DNA of 64,000 nucleotides, taken from NCBI GenBank assembly GCA_964577565.1, contig CAZNZL010000001.1, forward strand, positions 206,566 through 270,565, in the 5' to 3' direction. The position numbers and the translations under genes are program-made. This stretch comes from an uncultured Candidatus Saccharibacteria bacterium (GTDB lineage Bacteria > Patescibacteriota > Saccharimonadia > Saccharimonadales > JAGQNJ01). The notes beneath the pieces are model-generated. The model was given only the letters and a program-made list of their open reading frames with translations, searched no databases and was not told where the DNA came from. This document shows positions 523 to 35,717 of the stretch, one piece after another (position 1 is the stretch's first letter; each line of letters opens with the position of its first letter).

Positions 523-1154
523 TATTTGTCACCCCCAAGCCACTCGTTAATGATATCGAGTGATTTCTTAGTAATAATGATCGAATCAGCATTAAGAACA
601 TCATAAACATTCACATACTTTGCTTGCACTAAAATCACGTATGGAACGTTGCGGCTAGCTCGCACTAGCTCACTAGACTTGTTATCTACAACAACCAGCA
701 CGTTTCTGTTAGCACCAATTTTATTAAGCAAGGCCACAAATGGTTTAACTTTGCCGTCGTTGCTTTCAATACTGTCAATTACATTAATAGCTTTCGACTT
801 TAAGCTTAATGCTTGTCGAAGAGCAGTTTGTTTTGCTGCTGTGTTGAGCTTTCGACTGTAGTTTTCATTGCCGGTTGGGCCAAACACAATACCACCACCA
901 CGCCAAATTGGGTTTCGAGATGAACCAAAACGTGCACGGCCGGTACCTTTTTGGCGCCATGGCTTTCTACCGCCACCGCGAACTAAGCCACGAGTTTTAA
1001 CCACAGCATTATTTTCTCGGCCATTTGCTAGGTATGATAAATAGGCTTGCTTTAAGAGGTCGTGGCTCTCAACTGTTATGCCAAATACTTTTTTATCTAA
1101 CTTAACAGGAGTTGTTGCTTTAGTGCCTGATTTTGTATAGGTAGGAACGCTCAT
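522..1154 (-). CDS. rplD: 50S ribosomal protein L4
   Basis: 210 aa with an L4/L1e signature (KTRGLVRGGGRKPWRQKGTGRAR). GGAGGTG SD 8 nt upstream. S10 operon context. Confidence 0.97.
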   Translation of the reverse strand: MSVPTYTKSGTKATTPVKLDKKVFGITVESHDLLKQAYLSYLANGRENNAVVKTRGLVRGGGRKPWRQKGTGRARFGSSRNPIWRGGGIVFGPTGNENYSRKLNTAAKQTALRQALSLKSKAINVIDSIESNDGKVKPFVALLNKIGANRNVLVVVDNKSSELVRASRNVPYVILVQAKYVNVYDVLNADSIIITKKSLDIINEWLGGDK

Positions 1155-1258
1155 TATTTTTCACCTCCGGTTAACGAGACAAACCTACGGTTTTTCTCAT
1201 CGCGCAAGGTTTTGAATGAATCAAAACTTTGGCTGCTCTTTTCCCTTGAGAAATACAT
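1154..1258 (-). CDS. Intercistronic mini-ORF A (34 aa, MYFSREKSSQSFDSFKTLRDEKNRRFVSLTGGEK); novel small protein or relay ORF
   Basis: The ATG (1258-1256) overlaps the rplC stop as TAATG. The stop TAA (1156-1154) overlaps the rplD ATG as TAATG. The span is exactly 105 nt with no internal stop. The core 1171-1247 is repeated at 14020-14096 with 3 mismatches. It is too short for the supplied ORF track. Confidence 0.5.
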   Translation of the reverse strand: MYFSREKSSQSFDSFKTLRDEKNRRFVSLTGGEK

Positions 1259-2020: not shown

Positions 2021-2175
2021 CACTTTGCACAGGCACTAAACTCGCTTGTTAATGTTGTACATTGGTCTAGTGACAAGACATAGACATAAAAAGGCTTGGT
2101 ATATTGCAGTTTTCACCTCTGTTAAGAGCGCGAACTTACATGTATACACCAAGTAAATTACAAATATACTATTAC

Positions 2176-2205
2176 AGAGTAACAGAAAATCGCTACCTCT
2201 GTCAA
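2176..2205 (-). promoter_or_regulatory. Putative promoter of rplC (TTGACA-N18-TGtTACTCT)
   Basis: The reverse complement reads TTGACAgaggtagcgattttcTGtTACTCT, 9 nt after the stop of the upstream orphan. It would give a roughly 300-nt leader. Confidence 0.4.
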
Positions 2206-2213
2206 TATGTTGT

Positions 2214-2699
2214 TTATTCTACACTGACGGGTTGAAGGTCTACAACTTCTCTGACGAGTCTGGCGCCTTCTTCATAAATTCTTCCGGGTAAATAATAAAA
2301 ATCACTAATATCTAATATTCTCGTAAAGCCGGCTTCTTCTAATGGAAATTCAAGGTTTTCTGGTATTCGTCTGAAAGGCACATAAACCGTCAGGGTATTC
2401 TCAATACCAAGTTGCTGAAGTTGAAAAGGGGCAAAATCGGCCATGTCACCAGACCTCCAAGTGCTTTCCGGTATAAAACCAAATACCGCTAGAACACCAA
2501 GTCCGTCGCGTCGAATCGCGACTTCTTGCCGCTCTAAATCCCACAAAGAGTTTAGTTTAAAGTCTACCCATAAGCCAACTCTATCTAGAGCCAGCTTAGC
2601 TGGTGTTTGAAATAAACGCGGTGCAAGCACCGAAACACGACGCGGGTCGTCAAGATACTCTTGCATAACTCTATCTGTCCATTCTGAATCGTATTCCAT
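2214..2699 (-). CDS. Hypothetical acidic cytoplasmic protein (161 aa from MEYDSEW...)
   Basis: Long ORF in the rpsJ-rplC gap. The start at 2699 is preferred because TGaTATAAT sits 7 nt upstream. The track's upstream extension to 2768 overlaps the previous ORF. No recognisable domain. Confidence 0.6.
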   Translation of the reverse strand: MEYDSEWTDRVMQEYLDDPRRVSVLAPRLFQTPAKLALDRVGLWVDFKLNSLWDLERQEVAIRRDGLGVLAVFGFIPESTWRSGDMADFAPFQLQQLGIENTLTVYVPFRRIPENLEFPLEEAGFTRILDISDFYYLPGRIYEEGARLVREVVDLQPVSVE

Positions 2700-2706
2700 A
2701 TACGGG

Positions 2707-2715
2707 ATTATATCA
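2707..2715 (-). promoter_or_regulatory. Extended -10 promoter (TGaTATAAT), 7 nt upstream of the ATG at 2699; leaderless configuration
   Basis: Reverse complement of 2700-2715 = TGATATAATCCCGTAT, followed by ATG. Confidence 0.5.
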
Positions 2716-2727
2716 GAGAAATTATTG

Positions 2728-3063
2728 TTATATTGATACAAAAATACCGATAGGAGTCCAAAAACCAACCAGCATAGCTACTAACAATACGGCGTAACCA
2801 AGTTTACGGTCTTGTTTTATGCTCTCTTTTGAAACAAGAAACAAGCCTGCAATCAAACCTATTGGCAGGGGTAGCTGCCATGAACTGCCTTTACTAGCTT
2901 TGAGCCAGATTGATCCAACAATTACTAATATAACGAGTTTTAAGAAAAAGCCGCTATCGGTGTTGTTTGAAGGTTTTTGTTTTCTTTTTGTCACTAGTTT
3001 TATTATAGCAAAAATACAAATTAAGAAAGTATGTTTGCGCTTGTCTCTTAACTTAGCTAACAA
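2728..3063 (-). CDS. Hypothetical integral membrane protein (111 aa, about 4 hydrophobic segments)
   Basis: Hydrophobic stretches FLICIFAIIKLV, LVILVIVGSIWL, LPIGLIAGLFLV and AVLLVAMLVGFWTPIGIFVSI. It follows the previous ORF after 8 nt. Confidence 0.5.
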   Translation of the reverse strand: MLAKLRDKRKHTFLICIFAIIKLVTKRKQKPSNNTDSGFFLKLVILVIVGSIWLKASKGSSWQLPLPIGLIAGLFLVSKESIKQDRKLGYAVLLVAMLVGFWTPIGIFVSI

Positions 3064-3071
3064 ATTTTAAA

Positions 3072-3314
3072 TTAGCTATCGGTAGTTTGTCCTGCTGATT
3101 GTGCATCGATGGCACAGGGTTCTTTTAGTATATCCTTACCGATTTGTATGCTGCCACCCATTAGCATGCATCCCCCCAAGGCCACAAATAGTAGACCTTC
3201 ACCATCAACTTTAGAATGTATCTCTGCGACTAAGCCGCCAAGGGATAGTATGCCGCCACTAATACCAAGCTTCATGCCCGGTTCTTTTATGAATTCTCCT
3301 ACGCGTTGTAGCAT
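3072..3314 (-). CDS. Hypothetical small Gly-rich membrane protein (80 aa, two Gly-zipper-like segments)
   Basis: Segments LGISGGILSLGGLVAEI and LLFVALGGCMLMGGSIQIG. It starts 12 nt after the rpsJ stop, with AAAGG upstream. Confidence 0.5.
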   Translation of the reverse strand: MLQRVGEFIKEPGMKLGISGGILSLGGLVAEIHSKVDGEGLLFVALGGCMLMGGSIQIGKDILKEPCAIDAQSAGQTTDS

Positions 3315-3326
3315 GGAAGCGCCTTT

Positions 3327-3662
3327 CTACATCTTAATTTCGGCGTCGCAGCCAGCTGGTAGGCTCAGGTTCATGAGGCTATCAATTGTCTTTGGCGTTG
3401 GTTCAAGAACGTCAATAATGCGCTTATGAATGCGCATTTCAAACTGTTCACGGCCTTTTTTAAAGACGTGCGGGCTTTTTACTACCGTGTATGTTGTTCG
3501 TTGGGTTGGCAGTGGAATGGGCCCTGCTATTGTGGCGCCAGTACGCAAAGCTGTATCTACAATTTGCTTCGCAGACTGGTCAATTACTTTATGATCATAT
3601 GCTTTAAGGCGAATCCGGATTCGTTGTTTACCGGCTTCCTTACTAGCGGATGTTGCACTCAT
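3327..3662 (-). CDS. rpsJ: 30S ribosomal protein S10
   Basis: [24 protein letters not shown]...[23 protein letters not shown] is canonical S10. Confidence 0.97.
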
Positions 3663-3765: not shown

Positions 3766-4185
3766 CTATGTTGTGCTACTGCGGGATGGGGGTGACAAAC
3801 GAGGAATCGTAGGGTCATCTTTGAGTACTCTTAGTAAGTTGCCGAAGTTATAATGAGGTGCGTCATAACCACTATAAGTTGTACCTAAAATTCGACAGCC
3901 AGCTCTCCTTTCTAAGTCGGACGGGTACTCAACCTTATCGGTTGAAGCTACCTCAAGCTCTCGATATTCATTAATATAAACAGCATTGTCAGTATAACCA
4001 CCAAAGTGCTCATCTAAAAAAGCTCTAAATATGCCGTTAAGTGCAAAAAGCGACCAGCGTAATTGCACGGTCACAATGCATAAAAGATCGCTCGATCGTT
4101 CAATATGCTCAGCTAGTTCGTCAGAAAAAGCCGGTAATCCTGAAGTTGGCAGCTCTAAGGCTGTTACTCTTTCTAATGTTGTCAT
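3766..4185 (-). CDS. Hypothetical acidic protein (139 aa)
   Basis: ORF between the tuf terminator and the rpsJ promoter. No recognisable motif. Confidence 0.55.
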   Translation of the reverse strand: MTTLERVTALELPTSGLPAFSDELAEHIERSSDLLCIVTVQLRWSLFALNGIFRAFLDEHFGGYTDNAVYINEYRELEVASTDKVEYPSDLERRAGCRILGTTYSGYDAPHYNFGNLLRVLKDDPTIPRLSPPSRSSTT

Positions 4186-6059: not shown

Positions 6060-6512
6060 TCATTTGTCAATTACTTCAGTAATAATGTCTGGAAATTTCT
6101 CCATATCAACATCAATATTACTAAAAATCGCACTACTCGCAGCCCAAACAACTCTGTCACTCAACCGCTCCCAGCCTCTAAATTTATCTATTGGGTGAAT
6201 AGAATCATGAAACCGGGCGCTACTAAAAGCCGTTAGGGGGTCTTGCTGAATCAATGCTGTCTCGGCTAAATTTGTAGCCATTCGAAGAGTCAGTGCTAGT
6301 CTTTGGCCTGGAATATATGACCGAAACAAATGTTCTCGCGAGGCTACATAGCTAAGTCTACGTATTAGATCTTGCGCATAGTCAGCGTGACTCATGGGTA
6401 GTCGATAGCCTAAATTACGTATATCGAAATAGAGTTCGTCGCTAATGTCTTCAGGATGGCCCATGGATAGGTTACTTGTGGCTCTGAGTTCTGCCTCGTG
6501 TCGGTTTGTCAT
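6060..6512 (-). CDS. Hypothetical protein (150 aa)
   Basis: A 453-nt ORF starting 11 nt after the fusA stop. No SD and no recognisable domain. Confidence 0.55.
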   Translation of the reverse strand: MTNRHEAELRATSNLSMGHPEDISDELYFDIRNLGYRLPMSHADYAQDLIRRLSYVASREHLFRSYIPGQRLALTLRMATNLAETALIQQDPLTAFSSARFHDSIHPIDKFRGWERLSDRVVWAASSAIFSNIDVDMEKFPDIITEVIDK

Positions 6513-8622: not shown

Positions 8623-8964
8623 TTAATATGCTGATGTCCTTTTGAGTACGAGATTCGAAACAGTGTTCATTGCGGGACATGCAACAAGTGCATCTTCTAT
8701 TGTTTCTGAGCCATCTCTCCCAGGACATTGATCGTATATCCGAGAGACTTCCTCTAAGCTTACGCTTTCATGAACCACTAAAGTATCAAGTCCCCTACGA
8801 TTTGTCTCCACAAAGCACATCACTAGATCTCCTAGCACTCTTTCCTTACCGCCTCTTAAGATTCCTAAAAGAGAAGGTTGCCTTACCGTTAAGGATCTTT
8901 CTAGTGTGTCCTCATTCCCCATGCGGCACCCATGACAGCGCTCAACTTCAATTCTACTTGCCAT
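8623..8964 (-). CDS. Hypothetical Cys-containing protein (113 aa; CHGC, QCPG, ACP)
   Basis: The ORF fills the whole rpsG-fusA gap. It starts 3 nt after the rpsG stop, and its stop is followed immediately by the fusA SD. Its Arg codon usage differs from neighbouring genes. Confidence 0.55.
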   Translation of the reverse strand: MASRIEVERCHGCRMGNEDTLERSLTVRQPSLLGILRGGKERVLGDLVMCFVETNRRGLDTLVVHESVSLEEVSRIYDQCPGRDGSETIEDALVACPAMNTVSNLVLKRTSAY

Positions 8965-10187: not shown

Positions 10188-13100
10188 TTAGGCGTCAACT
10201 TCAACCTCTTGATCTTCTTTCTTCTTGGCATAGGCATTATATCCTGTACCTACCGGAATCATACGGCCCAAGATAACATTTTCTTTCAAACCATACAGAT
10301 GATCGACCTTGCCACTGGTTGCCGCGCTAATGAGTACACGGGTTGTGTCCTGAAAGCTCGCAGCACTCAAGAACGATTCGGTTGAAAGCGAAGCTTTAGT
10401 AATACCAAGTAGTAATTGGTTGTACTGAATCTGCTCTTTGCCAACTTTAGCCAATTTTTCGTTTTCTTCTTGGACGGCAATTTTACTGACAATATCGCCG
10501 GTAATGAAGTCGCTGTCACCGGCGTCTTCAATTTGTACGCGAGAAAACATTTGTCGCACAATAATTTCAAGGTGCTTATCGGCAATATTTTGGCCCTGGC
10601 TGGCAAAAATCTTCAAGATTTCGTTCATGATGTAGCGCTGTGTAGCCTCTACACCTTGCAGACGCATTAACTCGTGAAGGTTGATTGAACCGTTTGTCAG
10701 GCGTTGTCCGGCAACAACCTCATCGCCATCTTTAACCTGCAACTGCTTGTAACCAGGGATCTCATAGCGCACGACACTTTGCTTGCTTGGCGTAATGAAG
10801 ATTGATCTCTTGGTAACCTTAACTTTGCCGGCCACCGGTGCAATGAGCGGGTTCGCGCCTTCTTCTTCAGACGCCATAACATCGCCAATGTTAACATTTG
10901 AACCGTTTTTGATCTCTACCTTGCGTCCGTTCAGCGGGTATTCAACTGACGCGTCATCTTTAGCGGTAATTTCAACGATATAGTGGTCGCCTTCTTCCCA
11001 GGTTTTTACGACACCAGAAATGTCGGCTAGGAACGCCTGGCCTTTAGGTGTACGTACCTCAAACAGCTCTTCAACTCGAGGTAAACCGGTCGTAATGTCT
11101 TCACCAGCTACACCACCCGAGTGGAAGGTTCTGAGTGTCAACTGCGTACCTGGTTCGCCAATACTCTGAGCGGCAATAACTCCAACGGGGTGGTATTTTG
11201 CAACGATATCACCGGTGGCAGGGTCAAGGCCGTAGCTTTCGCGACTTATACCGCGCACACTGCTACAACTTAAGACACTCATAATGCGCACTGTATCGAT
11301 GTTTTTATCGCTATCGATAGCAAGGGCAACTTCTGGGCTAATCAGCTCGCCAGCTTTAACATGACCCTTAACAGCTTCTGCTGTAAAGCGGCCTTCAAGC
11401 CGAGAAGCAAAGGTAACGCCAATTTCTTCAGAGTCGGCACGGTAAATTGCAAAGCCTGGGTCTTCACACTCCTCGTCAGTTGTGAAGACGTCTTGGCTAA
11501 CGTCTACCAAGCGACGCGTCAAGTAACCTGAGTCCGCGGTCTTAAGTGCCGTGTCAATCATACCCTTACGGGCGCCGCGTGTTGCGGTAAAGTATTCAAG
11601 CGGACTAAAACCATACTTATAGTTTGATTTCACCGGCAATTCAATAGTGCGTCCTGTTGCATCTGCAACTGGGCCCAACATGCCTACGGCTGTTTTTACC
11701 TGACCAATATTACCACGAGCACCAGAGACAACAGCGGTAGACATAGCGCTGTCTTCGTTAGCAAATTGCTCGCTTAAGGTTTTTTGCACTTCACTGTCAA
11801 CATCTTGCCATGTTTCAATGGTTAAACGGTATCGCTCTTCATCGGTAATGAAACCCTGTTCGTACTGGTCGCTGATGTTGGCAACGCGTTCTTCGCCTCG
11901 TTCTAATATTGCTGCCAGTTCGGGCAGATCGGTAAAGTCATCCATACCCAAGCTCAAGCCTGACTGGGTCGCATACTTAAAACCAATGTCTTTTAAGTCA
12001 TCGGCAATGTACGCGGTTTTATCTTGGCCATAGCGCTGATAAACCTTTGACATGACGTTTGACAGCTTCTTTTTTGTCATGGTTTCGTCTTGGAACGGAA
12101 AATCTTCAGGGAAGATCTCATTAAACAGCAACCTACCCAGCGTTGTATTGCGCATTTCGCCGCGGAACGGTACCATCACACGGCTTTGCAGCTGGATTTT
12201 ACCAGCATCATACGCCATGAGTGCTTCGGCTAGATTTACAAACGGCTGAGCCTCATTTGAAGCACCCATGCGTTCGTAGGTTAAGTAGTAGCAGCCTAGT
12301 ACTATATCCTGGTCAATATGAAGAATTGGTGATCCGTCAGCTGGTTTTAATAGGTTCTTGTTTGAGGCCATGATCTCTCGCGCTTCTGTTTGTGCTGCGT
12401 CTGATAGCGGTAAATGTACGGCCATTTGGTCGCCGTCAAAGTCAGCGTTAAAACCTTTACATACCAGTGGGTGAAGCTGAATAGCCTTACCTTCAATCAA
12501 AACAGGCTGAAAAGCCTGAACACTCAAGCGGTGTAATGATGGCGCTCGGTTTAGAAGGACATATTTACCTTTAATGACTTCATCTAGGGCGTCCCAAACG
12601 GCAGTTTCACCCGCCTCGATCATTCTAGTTGCTGACCTAATATTATGAGCAAATTCATTAGAAATGAGGTGGCCAATCACAAATGGCTTAAATAGCTCCA
12701 AGGCCATCATTTTTGGCAGACCACACTGGTTAATTTTAAGTTCAGGACCAGCAACGATCACCGAACGACCAGAGTAGTCTACGCGCTTACCAAGTAAGTT
12801 TTGACGAAAACGACCTTGCTTACCCTTAAGCATATCGCTGAGTGATTTTAGACGTCGGCGCTGGCCAGTAGCTGCCACTGCGCGCCCACTACGAGCATTG
12901 CCGTTATCAATTAAAGCATCAACAGCTTCTTGAAGCATGCGTTGCTCATTACGCCGAATAACCTCAGGGGCATTCAATTCAATGAGTTTCTTCAAGCGAT
13001 TATTACGGTTAATAACACGACGGTAAAGATCGTTTAGGTCTGAGGTTGCAAAACGGCCACCCGTTAATTGAACCATCGGTCGGAGATCAGGAGGAATTAC

Positions 13101-13997
13101 CGGCAAAACCGTTAAGCACATAGAATTAGGCTTAATATCTGCTTGCTCCATACTTTCAAGCAAGCGCAAGCGCTTCATTAGTTTCTTTTTGCGCTGACCT
13201 TTCGCTTCTTCAGCTTCTGCGGTGAGGTCTTTAATTAGCTTCTTCAGATCAATTTGATCAAGTAGGTCTTTTAAGGCTGTACCACCCATACCGACCTCGA
13301 TGATATCTGCTAATTCATCTGGTAAATTGTGGTAGTCACTTTCGCTAATAAGGTTAAGCTTAACCAATGAATCAACCTGAGCCTTAAAGGTTTCAAAGCT
13401 TTGCGTAATCTCTTCGAGCTCTTTGGTACGCATTTCTGCCAAAGCCTTAACGTTGGCATCGTCTTTTGCAGCCTCTGCTTCATAGCGAGCTTTGATTGCT
13501 TCTTGTGCGGCAGCAAATTCTGCCTCTTTGTCTGCTAGTAGCTGGTCTCGCTTAGCTTCATCAACAGACTTAATGATATAGCTCGCAAAGTAGGCGACCC
13601 GTTCTAGGTTTTTTACCGTTAAGCCTAGGAGTAACCCTACGGCTGATGGTGTACCACGAAGAAACCAAATATGCGCTACGGGGCTTGCTAAACTAATATG
13701 ACCCATGCGCTCACGTCGAACAATTGATTTGGTGACGATTTCGCCATTTTTATCAACTGCCGCCTCACGAGAACGAACACCTTTATATTTTGCGTCATGG
13801 GGGTTTATATCTTTGACGGGGCCAAAGATGCGCTCACAGAATAGACCATCACGCTCTGGTTTTTGTGTTCGATAGTTAATAGTCTCTGGTTTTGTGACCT
13901 CGCCATGTGACCAATCTAAAATGTCATCTGCACTTGCTACCGCAAGGCGAACAGCATCAAAGTCTGAGATGGTGGGGCCGCTAGAGTAACGTCGCAT
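10188..13997 (-). CDS. rpoC: DNA-directed RNA polymerase subunit beta'
   Basis: 1269 aa with the [12 protein letters not shown] catalytic motif. Confidence 0.99.
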
Positions 13998-14107
13998 TAG
14001 TTTACCTCGCTTTCGCTCATTAATGAGACAAGCCTACGGTTTTTCTCATCGCGCAAGGTTTTGAATGAATCAAAACTCTGGCTGCTCTTTTCCCTTTTGA
14101 AAACCAT
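13997..14107 (-). CDS. Intercistronic mini-ORF B (36 aa, MVFKREKSSQSFDSFKTLRDEKNRRLVSLMSESEVN); paralog of mini-ORF A
   Basis: The ATG (14107-14105) overlaps the rpoB stop as TAATG. The stop (13999-13997) overlaps the rpoC ATG as TAATG. The span is 111 nt, in frame. Of the 3 substitutions against copy A in the 77-nt core, 2 are synonymous (CAA/CAG, TCG/TCA) and 1 is F->L. Confidence 0.5.
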   Translation of the reverse strand: MVFKREKSSQSFDSFKTLRDEKNRRLVSLMSESEVN

Positions 14108-17100
14108 TATTTTGCCTCCTCTTCGTCTTCATCGTTAGTGTCGTCATCGTCATCAGCCGATGCAGCCGCTACGCCCGCAGGCATGTGGTCGTCAAGTTCA
14201 ATTAAATCAAACTCGTCGATACCTTCTGCCGCAGTAACGTCAATTTCTGACACTTCTGGTGCCGGTACATCAACTTCAGATTGGTTGACTGCTTCGTCTT
14301 TAATGTTTTCAGCTAGAATTGCTTCGGCATCAACGGTGGTTTCTGAAGCGATCAGATCCACCTTAAGCCCAAGGCCCTGGAGCTCTTTAACGAGCACGTT
14401 AAAGCTTTCGGGTACCTTAGGACCAACAATCTCAGTCCCTTTAATGATTGACTCATATGCCTTCGAACGGCCATATACATCGTCAGACTTAATTGTCAGC
14501 ATTTCTTGCAGCGTATTTGCTGCACCATATGCCTCGAGGGCCCATACTTCCATCTCACCAAAGCGCTGACCGCCATTTTGAGCTTTACCACCAAGTGGTT
14601 GCTGCGTCACCATAGTGTAGGGGCCAGTTGAACGAGCATGAATCTTATCAACGATCATGTGGTTGAGCTTGATCATATACATGCTGCCAACCGTAGTTCT
14701 CTCAGAAAACGGCTCGCCGGTACGACCATCAAACAGCTGCTGTTTACCATCTTCTGGAAAGCCAGCTTCTTTTAGTAAGTCTTGAATCTTGCTAATTGGG
14801 ACACCGTTGAATGATGGCGAGGCAACATGTATACCAAGGGCACGAGCCGCCATACCAAGGTGGGTTTCAAACAACTGCCCAATATTCATACGCGACGGCA
14901 CACCTAGCGGGTTCAGCAAAATATCAACAGGAGTGCCATCTTCCATGAACGGCATGTCTTCAACAGGCAATATACGTGCAATCACACCCTTGTTACCGTG
15001 TCGACCACCTAATTTGTCACCAACTGCAATTTTACGCATTTGGGCCACAAAGACCTGAATTTGCATAATCACGCCAGCTTTTAACTCATGGCCGTTTTCG
15101 CGGCTAAAGACCTTTACGCCCACAACCTTGCCGTGCTTGCCGTTACTCATACGCTGAGAGGTATCGCGAACATCTTTAGCTTTTTCGCCAAAAATGGCTC
15201 GCAGTAAGCGCTCTTCGCTCGAAAGCTCTTGCTCGCCTTTAGGGGTAATCTTACCTACTAAGATATCGCCAGGATGCACATCAGCGCCAATACGTACAAT
15301 ACCGTCTTCATCAAGATGACGCAGAGCTTCTTCGGACACGTTTGGAATGTCTCGTGTAACTATTTCAGGGCCGAGCTTAGTCTCGCGAACCTCAGTCATA
15401 TAATCAACGATATGAATCGATGTTAACGTATCGTCCTCAACTAAGCGGCGTGAAACAATAATAGCGTCCTCAAAGTTGTAGCCCTTCCATGGCATGAACG
15501 CAGCTATAACATCTTTACCAAGTGCTAGTTCGCCGCCATCAATGGACATCCCTTCAATAAGAATATCGCCTGTCTTAACTTTATCGCCACTATTTACGAC
15601 AACCCTTTGGTTTATACATGAGCCTTCATTGCTGCGCACAAAGTGTTGCGGATAGTAATGCACCTTTCCAGCATTCTTGTACTTCACAATAACTTCAGAA
15701 GCGGTTGCTGATAAAACTTCACCGTCTTCTTCAGCCTGAACGAGCTGGCCGGTGTTTCGTGCCACTACCGATTCTAAGCCGGTTCCAACAATAGGCCGCG
15801 ATGGACTGATTAGAGGCACGGCCTGGCGTTGCTGGTTACTACCCATTAAGCTTCGGTACACGTAGTTCTTTTCAATAAACGGAATTAAACCAGCACTTGA
15901 ACCAATGATTTGCCGCTTTGAAGCATCAATATGAGTAATATCATCGGCGTCTACCTCACCTGAAATCAAACGATTTCGTGCCGAAACACGCTCGTTTACA
16001 AAGTAGCGTTCATCTGTCAATTCCTCGCTACCGCTTGCAATAACAGCTTGCTCTTCTTCAGCCGCATCGAGATACTCAACTTTTTTGGTAACCTTCGCTT
16101 TTACTGGCCAAGATTTTTGATTTTTAACCGAGGCCAGTTTTTTAACGTCAGCTGCTGTAATGGTTGAACCGGCCTTAACCAGTACCTTACCATTTTCGTC
16201 TTCAAGATTAACACGAGCTATGTGGCCTACAGCCTCTTTAGGCGTAACGGCATTTTGCACCTTAAGGTAGGGGGTTTCAATGAAACCATATTCATTAATT
16301 CGTGCATACATACCCAGGTTTAAAACCAAGCCAATATTAGCGCCTTCTGGCGTCTCTACGGCACATATGCGTCCGTAGTGCGTGGCATGGGCATCGCGAA
16401 CTTCAAAACCGGCACGCTCGCGACTTAACCCGCCAGGACCCATTGAACTTAGACGTCTTTTATGCGCCAATTCGCTCAAGGGGTTAATCTGATCCATAAA
16501 CTGAGAAAGCTGTGAGCTGGCAAAAAACTCACGTACTGCTGCCACAACAGGCCGCGCGTTAATGAGTTGTCCAGGTGTTACGGTCTCGATCTCGCTCATA
16601 CTCATTCTGTCTTTTGTGTTTCGCTCCATACGAAGTAAACCGATACGGAATTGGCGTTGTACGAGCTCACCAACCAACTTAACACGTCGATTAGCAAGGC
16701 TATCAATGTCGTCGGCTGGCTCTTGTGTATTATTGAGGCGAATAACCTCAGCCACAATAGCAACAAGATCGTCAATGCGCATTACACGGTTTTCAGCAGT
16801 GTTTGGCACATCAAGATTAAGGCGCTTATTGATTTTGTAACGCCCAACACGGCTAAAATCAAAGCGCTTAAAGTTATAGAACATGTTTTCAAGAAGTGAG
16901 CGTGCGTTATCAACGGTAGCTAAATCGCCCGGACGTAAGCGACGATAAACCTCAATTAGTGCCTCGTTGGTACCTTTAGCCGGATCTTTATCGAGGGTTG
17001 CTGTAATAAAGCTATCTTTTCCTTGATCTACGTGTGCAAAGCTTTCTTTAATCCTAGCCTCTGTGAGGCCTAACGCGCGTAGTAAGGTAGTAACAGGAAT

Positions 17101-17658
17101 TTTACGTTTGCGATCAATCTTAACGTATATTGCGCCATTGGCGGCGGTCTCAAATTCTAACCATGCACCACGGCCAGGAATAACCTTAGCGCCGTAAAGA
17201 TTGCGTCCACCATGGACATCGGCCGTAAAGAATACGCCGGCCGAGCGGATCAACTGGCTTACGACAACTCGCTCGGCACCGTTAATAACAAACGTACCAC
17301 GAGAAGTCATCCATGGATAATCACCCAAGTAAATCTCTTGTTCTTTAACTTCGCCAGTAACTTTGTTAGTCAAAATAACCGTTGCCTTTAGCGGAGCCTC
17401 AAACGAAACATTGTTTTCACGAGCCTCTGCTTCAGAGATTTTTGGCTCTTCAAAACGATAATCTTTAAAACTTAGTGATAATTTTGTACCGGTGTAATCA
17501 TCAATAGGACTAATTTCGGCTAACAATTCGCCGAGTCCCTCTTCAATAAACCACTGGAACGATTTGTTTTGATGATCTACAAGGTTTGGTAGATCTAAAA
17601 TATCATCTTTTTGTGTAAAGTACATGCGCTGCTGCGCAGATGTGGAAGCTTTTGCCAT
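14107..17658 (-). CDS. rpoB: DNA-directed RNA polymerase subunit beta (acidic C-terminal tail)
   Basis: 1183 aa with conserved beta-subunit blocks (GRHGNKGV, NPLGVPSRMN). It ends in a DDDDDTNDEDEEE tail. Confidence 0.99.
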   Translation of the reverse strand: MAKASTSAQQRMYFTQKDDILDLPNLVDHQNKSFQWFIEEGLGELLAEISPIDDYTGTKLSLSFKDYRFEEPKISEAEARENNVSFEAPLKATVILTNKVTGEVKEQEIYLGDYPWMTSRGTFVINGAERVVVSQLIRSAGVFFTADVHGGRNLYGAKVIPGRGAWLEFETAANGAIYVKIDRKRKIPVTTLLRALGLTEARIKESFAHVDQGKDSFITATLDKDPAKGTNEALIEVYRRLRPGDLATVDNARSLLENMFYNFKRFDFSRVGRYKINKRLNLDVPNTAENRVMRIDDLVAIVAEVIRLNNTQEPADDIDSLANRRVKLVGELVQRQFRIGLLRMERNTKDRMSMSEIETVTPGQLINARPVVAAVREFFASSQLSQFMDQINPLSELAHKRRLSSMGPGGLSRERAGFEVRDAHATHYGRICAVETPEGANIGLVLNLGMYARINEYGFIETPYLKVQNAVTPKEAVGHIARVNLEDENGKVLVKAGSTITAADVKKLASVKNQKSWPVKAKVTKKVEYLDAAEEEQAVIASGSEELTDERYFVNERVSARNRLISGEVDADDITHIDASKRQIIGSSAGLIPFIEKNYVYRSLMGSNQQRQAVPLISPSRPIVGTGLESVVARNTGQLVQAEEDGEVLSATASEVIVKYKNAGKVHYYPQHFVRSNEGSCINQRVVVNSGDKVKTGDILIEGMSIDGGELALGKDVIAAFMPWKGYNFEDAIIVSRRLVEDDTLTSIHIVDYMTEVRETKLGPEIVTRDIPNVSEEALRHLDEDGIVRIGADVHPGDILVGKITPKGEQELSSEERLLRAIFGEKAKDVRDTSQRMSNGKHGKVVGVKVFSRENGHELKAGVIMQIQVFVAQMRKIAVGDKLGGRHGNKGVIARILPVEDMPFMEDGTPVDILLNPLGVPSRMNIGQLFETHLGMAARALGIHVASPSFNGVPISKIQDLLKEAGFPEDGKQQLFDGRTGEPFSERTTVGSMYMIKLNHMIVDKIHARSTGPYTMVTQQPLGGKAQNGGQRFGEMEVWALEAYGAANTLQEMLTIKSDDVYGRSKAYESIIKGTEIVGPKVPESFNVLVKELQGLGLKVDLIASETTVDAEAILAENIKDEAVNQSEVDVPAPEVSEIDVTAAEGIDEFDLIELDDHMPAGVAAASADDDDDTNDEDEEEAK

Positions 17659-17895: not shown

Positions 17896-18489
17896 TTACG
17901 TTAATACCTTGTCAATAAGGCCATATTTTTTAGCTTCTTCGGCGCTCATCCAGAAATCACGCTCAACATCGGTTTCTATTCTTTTAATTGGCTGACCGGT
18001 GTTTTTTGCTAAAATTTGGTTAAGTAACTGCTTTAAACGCAACCCTTCTTTAAGGTCAATTTCCATATCGCTCACACGCCCTCGCGTACCGGCAGAAGGT
18101 TGGTGAATCATGACGGTTGCGTGCGGCAATAAGTAGCGTTTGCCCTTGGCACCCGAACTAAGCAGAAAGGCTGCAGCACTTGCCTGAACGCCAATACCAA
18201 CGGTTTGGACATCGCTTTTTACGTATTGCATGGTGTCATAGATTGCAAACGCATCGTAAACACTGCCACCAGGGCTGTTTATATAAAATTTAATGTCTTT
18301 TTTTGGGTCTTCATTTTCTAGAAATAACATTTGTGCTACCACTAAGTTAGCGGTATGCTCATTTACCTCGGTACCCAAAAAGATTATACGGTCTTTGAGT
18401 AAGCGCGAATATATATCAAACGCGCGCTCTACACGTCCCTCATTCTCAATAACCGTTGGAACTAGAACTGAATTTTTTGTATGTATCAT
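17896..18489 (-). CDS. clpP: ATP-dependent Clp protease proteolytic subunit
   Basis: Catalytic Ser ([10 protein letters not shown]), His (MIHQP) and Asp ([10 protein letters not shown]) contexts are present. The start is set at MIHTKN (18489), which has AAGGA upstream. The track's longer ORF would read through the CIRCE/promoter. Confidence 0.95.
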
Positions 18490-18524
18490 CTGTGCATCCT
18501 TATACGTTATAAATACATACCTTA

Positions 18525-18554
18525 AGTATAGCCAAATTAGCACTCGTCAGTCAA
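18525..18554 (-). promoter_or_regulatory. clpP promoter (TTGACT-N18-TATACT) overlapping CIRCE
   Basis: Reverse complement = TTGACTgacgagtgctaatttggcTATACT. The -35 box lies in the CIRCE spacer. Confidence 0.6.
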
Positions 18555-18563
18555 GAGTGCTAA
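18537..18563. promoter_or_regulatory. CIRCE operator (HrcA binding site), perfect consensus
   Basis: TTAGCACTC-gtcagtcaa-GAGTGCTAA matches TTAGCACTC-N9-GAGTGCTAA exactly. Confidence 0.85.
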
Positions 18564-18779
18564 TTTATTATGCTCTGCTTTTTCAAATGCAGCTAACAAA
18601 TCATACGCCTCTTCATTGCAACGAGCCTCAGCAATAACACCAATGAGAATTTCAAGAGAATGTCCTTGAGTTATAAGTGCCAAGCCAAGTGTCTCGACAT
18701 CATAACGTGTAATTACGTTATGTTCGGGGCGGTATCTGAAACTTGCTGTAGATGGTGTCTCATGAGCGTTTTCACTCAT
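18537..18779 (-). CDS. Hypothetical protein (80 aa) between tig and clpP; uncertain
   Basis: The ATG overlaps the tig stop (TAATG). The last 9 codons (KLALLTDEC*) are the CIRCE sequence itself. No recognisable domain. Confidence 0.35.
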
Positions 18780-33015: not shown

Positions 33016-35493
33016 CTATTCGTTGCTCACACTGTAGGCAAGATCTTTATTTTTTGTACCTACTTCAACTACGGTACCCTTGTCGTACATACCATTAATA
33101 AGCTCAACAGCAATATGATCCTCTAATGTGTCTTGTAGTAAGCGTCGCATTGGCCGTACGCCGTTTAATGCATCGTACCCATTTTTAAGAAGGTAGTTTT
33201 TAGCTGCAGGCGTCAGTCTAACGCTGACCCCTCGCTTAGTGAGACGTTGCTTAAGCTCATCAATTTGTAAATCCAGGATTCTAAGAATGTTTTGGCGTGT
33301 CAAAGCCCGGAATACAATAATTTGATCAATTCGGTTTAATAACTCTGGGCGCATCATTTTCTTAAGCTGATCAAGTACCTTGTCTTTATTGGCATCATGT
33401 AACTTGTTAAGATCGTTAAGATCCTCTTTATCAACGGCGCTAAACCCAAGGCTTACTTCTTTTTGGAGCCGTTCCGCACCAATATTACTGGTCATAATTA
33501 CAATAGTGTTCGTAAAATCAATTTTACGGCCCTTTGCATCCGTCAGCGTACCGTCTTCAAGAATCTGCAGCAACATATTAAAGACGTCTGGGTGGGCCTT
33601 CTCAATCTCGTCAAACAACACCACACTGTACGGCTGGCGTCGTATTTTATCGGTCAGCTGGCCGCCATCATCATAACCCACATAACCAGCCGGCGCACCA
33701 ACAAGACGCGCAACATTATGATGTTCACCGAACTCACTCATATCTATTTTTACAAGTGATTCTTCAGACCCAAAAAACTCTCGTGACAATACTCGTGCCA
33801 GTTCGGTTTTACCCACCCCTGTCGGACCTAAGAAAATGAATGAACCAATCGGCCGCTTAGGACTACTAACGCCCGAACGGTTACGGCGAACAGCCCGCGC
33901 CACAGCGTGAACTGCTTCATCTTGCCCAATAACGTATTTGCCAAGATTCTTCTCTAAGTTAAGCAGGTATTTTGCCTCTGATCTGATGACTTTTTGTACG
34001 GGTACACCGGTTGTTCGCGCAACAATTTCAGCTACGTCGTCGCTTGTCATACTGATTTTTTTGGTCTCTTTTTCTGAGGCTTGTAACTTCTTTAAATCGG
34101 CATGAATCTGGCTAGCGCGTTGTTTATGCTGGGCCGCCTTTTCATAATCTTCACTATCAACGGCATCTTCAATGCGCGTATTAATGAGTTTTAGCTCATT
34201 CTTAAGTTTGCGCACTTCTGGCGGCGTGCGGCCCTTATCAATACGCAAATGAGCGGCTGTTTCGTCAAGAAGATCGATCGCCTTATCTGGCATAAATCGA
34301 TCATTAATGTAGCGGTCAGCCAAACCAACAATATCTTCTAATACTTCATCGGCCACGGTAACGCCATGAAAAGCCTCGTAATGCTTACGAAGACCTTTTA
34401 AGATTGCAACTGTCTCTGCTTTATTGGTGGGAGGTACTTGAATGGGCTGAAAACGGCGCTCTAAGGCACTATCCTTTTCGATATGCTTGGTATATTCAGC
34501 TGTAGTAGTAGCACCAATTACCTGAACTTTCCCGCGCGCTAAAGCGGGTTTAAGAATATTACCCGCATCGAGCGCTCCTTCGGCTGCGCCGGCTCCTACA
34601 ATTAAGTGCAATTCATCAATGAAGACAATGGTTTTTGTGTCGTTTTCAAGTTCGGTCATAACCTTCTTTAGACGCTCTTCAAACTCACCCCGATATTTTG
34701 TGCCTGCAATCATAGCGGTTAAGTCAAGCATAACAATACGCTTATCAAGCAGGCTGTCAGGAACATCTTCGCTGATAATACGCTGGGCTAAACCTTCAAC
34801 AATAGCAGTTTTTCCAACGCCGGGCTCGCCTATTAAGACAGGGTTATTTTTAGTACGGCGATTCAAAATGGTTACCATTCGCCTAATTTGGGCATCGCGG
34901 CCAACCACTGGATCAAGCTTAGCGTCACGTGCAGCTTGTGTTAAATCGGTACCAAAAAAATCAAGAGCCGTTTTACGACGTGGTTTTTTACGAGCAGTGC
35001 CCGAACCGTTGCTTGACCCCTCTTCGTATTGCTGACGATTAAGAAACTGCTCTAATTCGTTCATAAGGCCATCTACATTTATCTTCATATCACGCAGCAA
35101 AACAGTTGCGCGGGCATTTTTTTGGCTCAGTATGCTGTACAGAATATGCTCAGTACCACAAAATTCTTGATTATAATCTTGTGCAATATCATAGGCCATT
35201 TTAAGCGTTAATTTGGCGGTTTCACTCAAGCCCTTTGCACCCATATTAATCACCAATGTCTTTGGCGTTAAATTAAGCGCCAGGCGAGCTCGGTCAAGCG
35301 TAACGCCAGCGTCTTGAAGTAATTTTGCGCCCATTGAAGATTCTTGAGCCAACACACCCAAAAGCAGGTGCTCAGTACCAACATAGGGGCTACCAGCTGC
35401 ACGTGCAATACCATCTGCGTGGCGCAAGCTTTGAAGCCCGTTCTCTGTAAGATGATTGATAAATTCTTGAAATTCTGATGAGTTTGGTGGCAT
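33016..35493 (-). CDS. clpC: ATP-dependent Clp protease ATP-binding subunit ClpC
   Basis: 825 aa with duplicated Clp_N repeats, two AAA+ modules ([16 protein letters not shown]) and a short UVR-type linker. Confidence 0.93.
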
Positions 35494-35508: not shown

Positions 35509-35627
35509 TTAATAAGACAAACCTAGGGGTTTTTCTCATCGCGCCAGGCAAAAAGTATGATACTGTACCCCTCAAAATTTCATTTTGTGGGGACCCCAGT
35601 TTTTGCTTGGGCTGCTCTTTTCCCTCC
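35509..35627 (-). repeat. Third copy (C) of the mini-ORF/RNA element, in the clpC 5' UTR; non-coding, with an expanded central hairpin
   Basis: The gene strand keeps GGGAAAAGAGCAGCC and GCGCGAUGAGAAAAACC-loop-GGUUUGUCU. The central hairpin is about 40 nt longer, and the A/B reading frame is broken by stops. Confidence 0.6.
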
Positions 35628-35661: not shown

Positions 35662-35691
35662 AGTATAGCGAAATTAGCACTCGTCAGTCAA
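35662..35691 (-). promoter_or_regulatory. clpC promoter (TTGACT-N18-TATACT) overlapping CIRCE
   Basis: Reverse complement = TTGACTgacgagtgctaatttcgcTATACT. Near-identical to the clpP cassette. Confidence 0.6.
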
Positions 35692-35700
35692 GAGTGCTAA
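35674..35700. promoter_or_regulatory. CIRCE operator (HrcA binding site), perfect consensus
   Basis: TTAGCACTC-gtcagtcaa-GAGTGCTAA, identical to the clpP copy. Confidence 0.85.
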
Positions 35701-35717
35701 TTAATTACCGTTGTTGG

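Follow-up and report, generated by a model that had tools for sequence, protein, structure and literature searches.

A structured interspersed repeat of Saccharibacteria occupies the rplC-rplD junction, where it is probably bridged by a relay open reading frame

In this work, we analyzed a stretch of 64,000 nucleotides (nt) from an uncultured Candidatus Saccharibacteria bacterium (contig CAZNZL010000001.1, positions 206,566 to 270,565; hereafter, the window, whose own numbering is used throughout), in which the ribosomal protein genes rplC (1258-1869) and rplD (522-1154), both on the minus strand, are separated by a short spacer. What fills this spacer is a single copy of a repeat, inserted as 104 nt. 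The repeat is a member of a new Saccharibacteria family of structured, interspersed repeats, with a unit of roughly 75 to 105 nt, that works like the Rickettsia palindromic elements (RPEs) and the intervening sequences (IVSs) of rRNA genes without being demonstrably either of them. We consider it probable that the structured repeat, most likely a selfish or neutral mobile one, was inserted at an ancestral TAATG stop/start overlap and is bridged by a relay open reading frame (ORF).

The ORF in question, mini-ORF A, had been described in an earlier note made from the sequence of the window, and its description holds. It occupies positions 1154-1258 of the minus strand (34 codons plus the stop), its 34-amino-acid product would be MYFSREKSSQSFDSFKTLRDEKNRRFVSLTGGEK, and it overlaps both neighbors through TAATG: the rplC TAA (1260-1258) with the ORF ATG (1258-1256), and the ORF TAA (1156-1154) with the rplD ATG (1154-1152). 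The spacer between rplC and rplD measures 103 nt, and the Shine-Dalgarno (SD) sequence of rplD, GGAGGTG (1168-1162, minus strand), is encoded by the last codons of the mini-ORF, as the note had stated. This SD sequence is located within the 3' module of the insert, and the same kind of tail, ...CCGGAGG(C/T)G..., is present in loci L026, L068, L102, L111 and L113.

The core of the element in this spacer (copy A) was located at 1174-1246 on the minus strand with the covariance model R1 (88.6 bits, E = 1.7e-22). From 5' to 3', it consists of block 1, the P1 hairpin, GCGC, and the P2 hairpin. Block 1, AGGGAAAAGAGCAGCC (1231-1246, minus), is a purine-rich, near-invariant 5' block that forms a mirror repeat with the 5' strand of P2. 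The P1 hairpin (1205-1231, minus) is variable in sequence, and its pairs covary in the family; read on the plus strand, P1 of copy A is a terminator-like hairpin followed by GCTGCTCTTT. The P2 hairpin, GATGAGAAAAACC-GTA-GGTTTGTCTCGT (1174-1201, minus), has 12 base pairs, one A.G mismatch, and a GNA loop.

The comparison with the three closest relatives (L001, L002 and L003, whose L4 proteins are 80, 75 and 71% identical, respectively) defines the insertion. In all three, rplC and rplD overlap by one base in a bare TAATG and the element is absent; the junction of L001 reads AAGGAGGCACAGTAATGG, and the covariance model found no match in the rplC-rplD loci of the three genomes. Relative to them, the window has 104 additional nt after the ancestral TAATG, closing with a second TAATG. 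The 3' end of rplC contains a GGAGG (1266-1270, minus) that precedes the ATG of the mini-ORF and that, judging by the empty L001 junction, is the ancestral SD sequence of rplD, now serving the mini-ORF.

From this comparison, the following sequence of events can be proposed. A copy of the repeat would have landed on the ancestral TAATG overlap of rplC and rplD, so that the old rplD start codon, with its SD sequence within rplC, would now open a short ORF that reads across both hairpins and halts at the second TAATG, which, together with the SD sequence that precedes it, would come from the 3' module of the element. Ribosomes ending rplC would restart at once, melt the hairpins while translating, terminate on the rplD ATG, and restart again. 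Since ribosomes would translate through the hairpins, the inserted structure would not break the coupling; translational coupling would survive, and the peptide would be a by-product. The translation of the mini-ORF, the dependence of the downstream gene on that translation, and mobility rather than function are the steps that we infer.

To define the family, one genome per species was scanned for block 1 as the 15-mer GGGAAAAGAGCAGCC, which returned many Saccharibacteria loci among chance matches; at least 27 of these loci continue into the remainder of the element. A scan of metagenomes with the P2 pattern, in which contigs were counted irrespective of their taxonomy, added at least 120 further loci. 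Both scans demanded exact blocks, and all family counts are lower bounds. We collected at least 162 instances, of which 160 remained after de-duplication, with 158 distinct cores. The covariance model matched more than 150 further copies in other genomes and metagenomes. The consensus is AGGGAAAAGAGCAGCC, a P1 hairpin of variable length (0 to ~70 nt), GCGC, and P2 (GAUGAGAAAAACC-GNA-GGUUUGUCUCAU).

The structure of the element is backed by covariation. In an alignment of 115 copies, 97.1% of the cells pair, compared to 32-60% in slid controls; changes on both sides occur in 18 of the 22 pairs, and the covariation score is 0.326 versus 0.04-0.05 in the slid controls. P2 is mostly invariant with wobble changes, and part of the aligned set was chosen by its P2 sequence. 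Many copies outside the junctions have an extra helix (P0), formed by a CUGCUCUUUCCC-like upstream flank that pairs with block 1; its frequency is 59% among tRNA copies, 39% among the other non-junction copies, and 4% at junctions. The view that this RNA is not a described family agrees with our searches: Rfam 15 gave no match for it, the sole match in the 64-kb window at the gathering threshold being a tRNA-Leu, and an E-value search of positions 1100-1320 gave one spurious match (E = 9.6). The literature that we searched also contained no description of the element family.

About a quarter of all copies are located at gene junctions, and it is in these copies that the relay function of the bridging ORF can be evaluated. 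We defined tight junction copies independently of the frame inside the element, as those in which a long upstream ORF ends at most 30 nt from the element and, within ~50 nt after it, a second long ORF begins with an ATG preceded by an SD sequence. In 25 of these 28 copies there is a bridging ORF with overlaps or adjacency at both ends, which supports the relay reading, one of the two offered by the earlier note. The bridging ORFs span 33 to 50 codons, start a few nt from the upstream stop, and end a few nt from the downstream ATG; the contacts are -1 (TAATG), -4 (ATGA) or direct adjacency, mostly -1 or -4 at the start. An uninterrupted frame extends from 9 nt ahead of the core to 15 nt beyond it in 25 of 28 junction copies versus 30 of 131 others (Fisher p = 5e-11), and the length of P1 keeps the conserved blocks in phase in 26 of 28 versus 49 of 131 (p = 3e-8). 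Junction copies, then, specifically retain the open frame and both overlaps.

It could be argued that the product of the mini-ORF is a functional small protein, synthesized in concert with the subunits of the ribosome and of RNA polymerase, which was the other reading of the earlier note. Its ATG has a good SD sequence, the segments REKSSQS and LRDEKNRRFV recur in at least 20 junction ORFs, and these ORFs are called by gene callers and appear in the protein collection as unnamed singleton clusters. However, the same element is present at least 100 times at non-coding sites (tRNA and rRNA leaders, 23S genes, and 5' untranslated regions (UTRs) with stops), and the same nucleotides are conserved in more than 100 non-coding copies; the junction peptides are alike only where the conserved nucleotides dictate it. 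The middle of the peptide is variable and follows the compensatory changes of a hairpin, the N- and C-terminal parts are free in length and sequence, no Pfam match was found for the mini-ORF peptide, and the ORF is missing in the closest relatives. In the atpG|atpD junction of L227, moreover, the second half of the ORF uses another frame and still bridges exactly. We therefore regard a functional small protein as very improbable, and we favor the view that selection would act on being translated and not on the peptide.

A different objection is that the frame may be inherited, i.e., that the whole junction cassette (ATG, element, SD sequence, TAATG) is copied as a unit, with no selection on the frame, and that rplD is translated from its own SD sequence. 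The base of P1 is CAG...CTG in 17 of 28 junction copies versus 5 of 132 others, shared 3' tails, TTAAGGAGGCCAAGTAATG among them, are found at distinct junctions of distinct genomes, and the element brings its own strong SD sequence for the downstream gene. Nevertheless, junction copies vary in the linker from the ATG to the core (9-21 nt), in the length of P1, in the P2 loop (3, 4 or 6 nt), and in the tail, and yet both overlaps are kept in 25 of the 28; insertions and deletions are compensated, and 4-nt loops are paired with different tails. Even after large changes the frame is open, as in L227 and in L027, where it stays open across a 40-nt extra insert. On balance, an inherited cassette appears improbable to us.

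The window contains three copies of the element (A, B and C). The earlier note had reported that the 77-nt core at 1171-1247 recurs at 14020-14096, and this recurrence is exact in its three mismatches; a repeat search gives 90% identity over 101 nt, and none of 100 shuffles yielded a 78-nt match with three or fewer mismatches. The core of copy B is located at 14023-14095 on the minus strand (R1, 86.5 bits; 3 of 77 nt differ from copy A), between rpoB (14107-17658, minus) and rpoC (10188-13997, minus). There, the note had overlooked a second TAATG-to-TAATG ORF, mini-ORF B (13997-14107, minus), of 36 codons and with a TAATG at each end.

The altered copy that had been noticed near 35509-35627 is also real: a covariance model trained on other genomes detects it at 35512-35625 (minus strand; 32 bits, E = 4e-7). 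This copy C lies downstream of an operator known as the controlling inverted repeat of chaperone expression (CIRCE), within the clpC-like gene's 5'UTR, has a 45-nt insert in P1, and is more diverged than copies A and B. It has no bridging ORF of the junction type, since the frame used by junction copies has a stop and the sole open frame lacks an ATG. By contrast, the altered form claimed at 1912-2020 did not survive scrutiny (3.9 bits, E = 0.13 even when searching just 371 nt); that stretch falls within a separate insert of ~165 nt in the rplC leader, described below.

The distribution of the copies among genomes points to turnover. Copies A and B are 96% identical, with dissimilar flanks. 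Of the three window copies, A and C had their orthologous sites tested, and these are unoccupied in the closest relatives: besides the rplC|rplD junction, copy C is missing from the clpC leaders of four relatives (ClpC identity 92-83%), which retain the CIRCE operator, the promoter, and the SD sequence. A conserved regulator of the clpC leader was thus ruled out, as four close relatives do not have the element there. The P1 hairpin is common to the copies of one contig (L104, L068, L072) and not to copies at the same junction in other genomes. The 23S sites described below are likewise polymorphic. Multiple copies, polymorphism in presence and absence, and near-identical paralogues are what is generally expected of interspersed repeats.

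As for the genomic context, whose classes were assigned heuristically, the orientation of the element was taken from a tRNA-based count, because naive ORF calls were too noisy. Among the tRNA-adjacent copies, 45 of 53 are in the 5' leader on the tRNA strand, and they cover 14 amino-acid specificities; the distance to the tRNA is 3-12 nt from the end of the motif, or 6-20 nt from GGUUUGUCU or the end of GGTTTGTCT. The antisense strand of the element reads as a terminator-like hairpin followed by CTGCTCTTTT, and a small number of antisense copies border on tRNA 3' ends, a position at which termination would be of use; the same antisense reading could explain the sense bias without any RNA function. 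Other copies are located just upstream of the 23S and 5S 5' ends, and some are inside the 23S gene: in the loop of helix 25 (L129, L145), near position 400, near position 1200 (L139, L124), which we take to be helix 45, and near position 1750 (L129, L150, L166). These rRNA placements were confirmed with Rfam and are all sense to the rRNA; at the 23S sites, presence and absence differ between contigs.

Copies in 5'UTRs precede hrcA, clpC, rplK, tuf and rpsJ, and there are also copies ahead of ssb and groEL, those of ssb having been put in the rough junction set. The occupied junctions of ribosomal protein genes are rplC|rplD, rplD|rplW and rplW|rplB, together with those ahead of rpsC, rplP, rpsQ (S17), rplN, rpsN (S14) and rpsG (S7); rpoB|rpoC, atpG|atpD and yidC|jag are occupied as well.

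These placements bear on the alternative in which the element acts in cis as a functional RNA module of Saccharibacteria, common to the leaders of tRNA, 23S and 5S transcripts and to the transcripts for ribosomal proteins, RNA polymerase and chaperones. It might bind a global factor, assist antitermination or folding, or confer stability; the junction ORFs would still be relays, and the element would be kept for its RNA role. Block 1 and P2 are nearly invariant even where the search selected only the other block, the 45 sense copies lie in tRNA 5' leaders at 3-12 nt from the tRNA, others are directly upstream of the mature 23S and 5S 5' ends, and several species carry the element at the same junctions or leaders (hrcA, clpC, ssb, jag, L5|S14, L29|S17, rplW|rplB). 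In addition, the lengths of the A-runs in block 1 and P2 are coupled, which suggests an interaction between both blocks: they change jointly, with lengths (4,5) in 118 copies, (5,6) in four, and neither (4,6) nor (5,5) in any, and two more joint cases were noticed by eye.

Against an RNA module, the orthologous rplC|rplD and clpC sites are empty in the closest relatives, the positions inside 23S vary between genomes, and paralogues of one genome resemble each other more than copies at one site do across genomes. Nor were the features of a riboswitch or cis leader found at the rplD and clpC sites, which are empty in the closest relatives: the element has no expression platform, i.e., no sense-strand terminator and no helix that sequesters the SD sequence. 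Translation through the element at junctions would keep melting its fold. A two-state switch was considered and rejected: the pairing of block 1 with the 3' strand of P2 forms in no more than 55% of the copies with P2 blocked and is ~8 kcal/mol worse than P1 plus P2. Considering both sides, we see an RNA module as an unlikely explanation, although one to be taken seriously. Its most far-reaching form, a Saccharibacteria-specific module that would extend even to the 23S expansion sites and that, recognized by one factor or folded through its mirror-repeat purine tracts into a triplex or switch, would coordinate the synthesis or processing of the whole translation apparatus where regulators are very few, is speculative and rather unlikely. 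Equally tentative is the corollary that, under that module, the passage of ribosomes over the relay ORFs would determine how the element folds at gene junctions.

Returning to the insertion of a selfish or neutral mobile repeat, several of our results weigh against it. No terminal inverted repeats were found, as the 5' end of the element, AGGGAAAAGAGC, is unrelated to the reverse complement of its 3' end, ATGAGACAAACC; the P1 and P2 hairpins are internal, and block 1 and the 5' strand of P2 are mirror, not inverted, repeats. The tRNA, rRNA and UTR copies have no evident target-site duplication. No transposase turned up, although no search aimed at transposases beside the copies was made. Distribution is, consequently, the one ground for calling the element mobile. 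Furthermore, upwards of 40 positions show almost no variation across many species, the copies are placed with great specificity (on the sense strand in tRNA 5' leaders, and in the 23S and 5S leaders), and they are enriched beside genes of the translation apparatus and chaperones, all of which would equally fit a functional RNA or targeted insertion. Exact-block scans of a limited set of listed matches also bias the conservation estimates upwards. Finally, the junction copies belong largely to one subfamily and are thus not fully independent evidence of frame conservation.

Junction copies, for their part, are flanked by direct repeats of TAATG or of a longer SD-TAATG (L064, L072, L104). The 3' flanking repeat at junctions reappears from genome to genome, and it looks to be a component of the element itself. 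Such SD-TAATG microhomology could serve recombination.

The element can be compared with several known systems. The RPEs, reviewed in PMC10969869, resemble it in layout: they are short hairpin-capable repeats (~100-150 nt) interspersed in a reduced genome and tolerated in translated regions by means of an open frame, the peptide being a by-product. RPEs, however, are fused in frame inside host ORFs, whereas the element sits between overlapping cistrons as an ORF of its own, and most of its copies are in tRNA and rRNA leaders and inside 23S. The resemblance to 23S IVSs comes from members at the helix-25 loop and near position 1200, which are sporadic between genomes; these insertions were seen in other members of the family and in none of the window copies. 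In Saccharibacteria, 64 of 66 rRNA insertions have been reported as short, without an intron or homing endonuclease, and uncharacterized (PMC11270868). Classical IVSs differ in being confined to rRNA, excised by RNase III via a long terminal stem, and often associated with an ORF, while the element is also present in tRNA leaders, 5'UTRs and gene junctions.

Like the MITEs (miniature transposable elements with inverted repeats) and the Correia, ERIC, BOX and REP repeats, the element is small, multi-copy, non-coding, structured, polymorphic in its insertions, and co-transcribed with its neighbors. A case of this type is the Chunjie MITE, which, as cited in PMC10969869, was inserted into an operon and left it undisturbed. 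Unlike MITEs, the element has no terminal inverted repeats, parent insertion sequence or general target-site duplication that we could find, and its sense-strand bias is strong and its conservation among species deep. The overlaps (TAATG, ATGA) of termination-reinitiation coupling are those employed at either end of the mini-ORF, and the junction of the relatives is a single TAATG; the difference lies in two successive couplings through an ORF of 33-50 codons whose apparent role is solely to span the insert. The element also shares with ribosomal protein leaders and riboswitch-like regulators, such as the L4-controlled S10 leader, a structured RNA in ribosomal protein operons just upstream of a start codon, but it is neither conserved at orthologous sites nor confined to a single operon, and it has no expression platform and no Rfam match.

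These results indicate that spacers in the most conserved operons of a reduced genome can be insertions of a repeat family. The family is one way to explain the short rRNA insertions, the long tRNA leaders and the odd mini-ORFs of Saccharibacteria, and it should help their annotation; the junction copies are a clean case from nature of a spanning ORF that, coupled at both ends, may make an insert harmless where stop and start codons overlap. In this sense, the relay ORF would be the counterpart, between genes, of the in-frame RPEs. If the RNA were functional, a single module would link the expression of tRNA, rRNA, ribosomal proteins and chaperones in an organism with very few regulators.

Some features of the family deserve separate mention. 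Block 1 and the 5' strand of P2 are mirror repeats around P1, AAAAGAGCAGC corresponding to AAAAGAGUAGC read backwards (1231-1246 and 1189-1201 in the window). A purine-motif triplex or an H-DNA-like fold would fit this mirror repeat together with the joint A-runs. Among known motifs, the hammerhead (GAUGAG...GAAA), twister, pistol and hatchet ribozymes and preQ1-I were compared with the element, as were the box C/D K-turn, the rrn boxA and the signal recognition particle helix 8 motif; none fits, and none has Rfam support, a boxA-like TGCTCTTT being confined to the antisense strand. An internal promoter was also rejected, the one 9/12 match (TTGTCT-18-AATAAT) not exceeding shuffles; a -10 box is located upstream of the element in the inspected tRNA and UTR copies. 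A phage origin was discarded as well, since none of the three IMG/VR matches to the P2 pattern is a full element.

Minimal variants of 48 nt without P1 (GGGAAAAGAGCAGCG-AAGC-GATGAG...) were observed in L154 (559-606 and 733-780), L166 (1092-1139), L178 (1439-1486) and L147, all just upstream of the 23S 5' end and at times in tandem. In L121 (1-330), units of ~57 nt (CCCCGCTGAAGCCTTCACCGTCATGCTAAAGCG...) and copies of the element alternate in tandem, an array that looks like the repeated duplication of a gene 3' end plus the element. The helix-25 site used by the element in L129 and L145 carries unrelated AT-rich insertions in L139 and L166, and the 23S gene of L150, which also bears the element, has a group I intron at 1796-2054 (RF00028, 63 bits). 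In L009 (1-700) and L042 (3054-3300), the element is in the 5' region of a membrane-protein gene located head-to-head, within ~200 nt, with a 23S fragment. Since this fragment starts at model position 2049, the 23S gene there is interrupted or the contig rearranged.

The gene order on the minus strand of the window is rpoB, rpoC, rpsL, rpsG, fusA, tuf, rpsJ (3327-3662), three small ORFs, rplC, rplD and rplW. Small ORFs without a Pfam match interrupt the canonical str/S10 gene order on this strand: they are located between rpsG and fusA (8623-8964), between fusA and tuf (6060-6512), between tuf and rpsJ (3766-4185), and between rpsJ and rplC (region 2214-3314), the three of this last interval having no Pfam match. 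Unnamed ORFs are present at matching str/S10 places in the relatives.

The leader of rplC (~140 nt) is strongly conserved, at ~2060-2215 (minus) in the window, 660-810 in L001, and ~9200-9350 in L002 and L003. It contains a TTGACA promoter-like box, a long hairpin (CTTGGTGTATAC...TATACCAAG), and then CCTTTTTATG. Rfam gives no match for this leader, which resembles an S10-leader attenuator positioned ahead of rplC instead of rpsJ. Compared to the three relatives, the window leader has the lineage-specific insert of ~165 nt mentioned above (~1883-2050, minus), which may represent either a copy of the element in decay or another kind of insert.

Two CIRCE operators (TTAGCACTC-N9-GAGTGCTAA) were found in the window, one at 35671-35702, upstream of the ClpC-like gene (33016-35493), and the other at 18535-18566, upstream of clpP (17896-18543). 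These operators, along with the hrcA leaders at other loci, suggest that the Clp genes are under HrcA control in this lineage.

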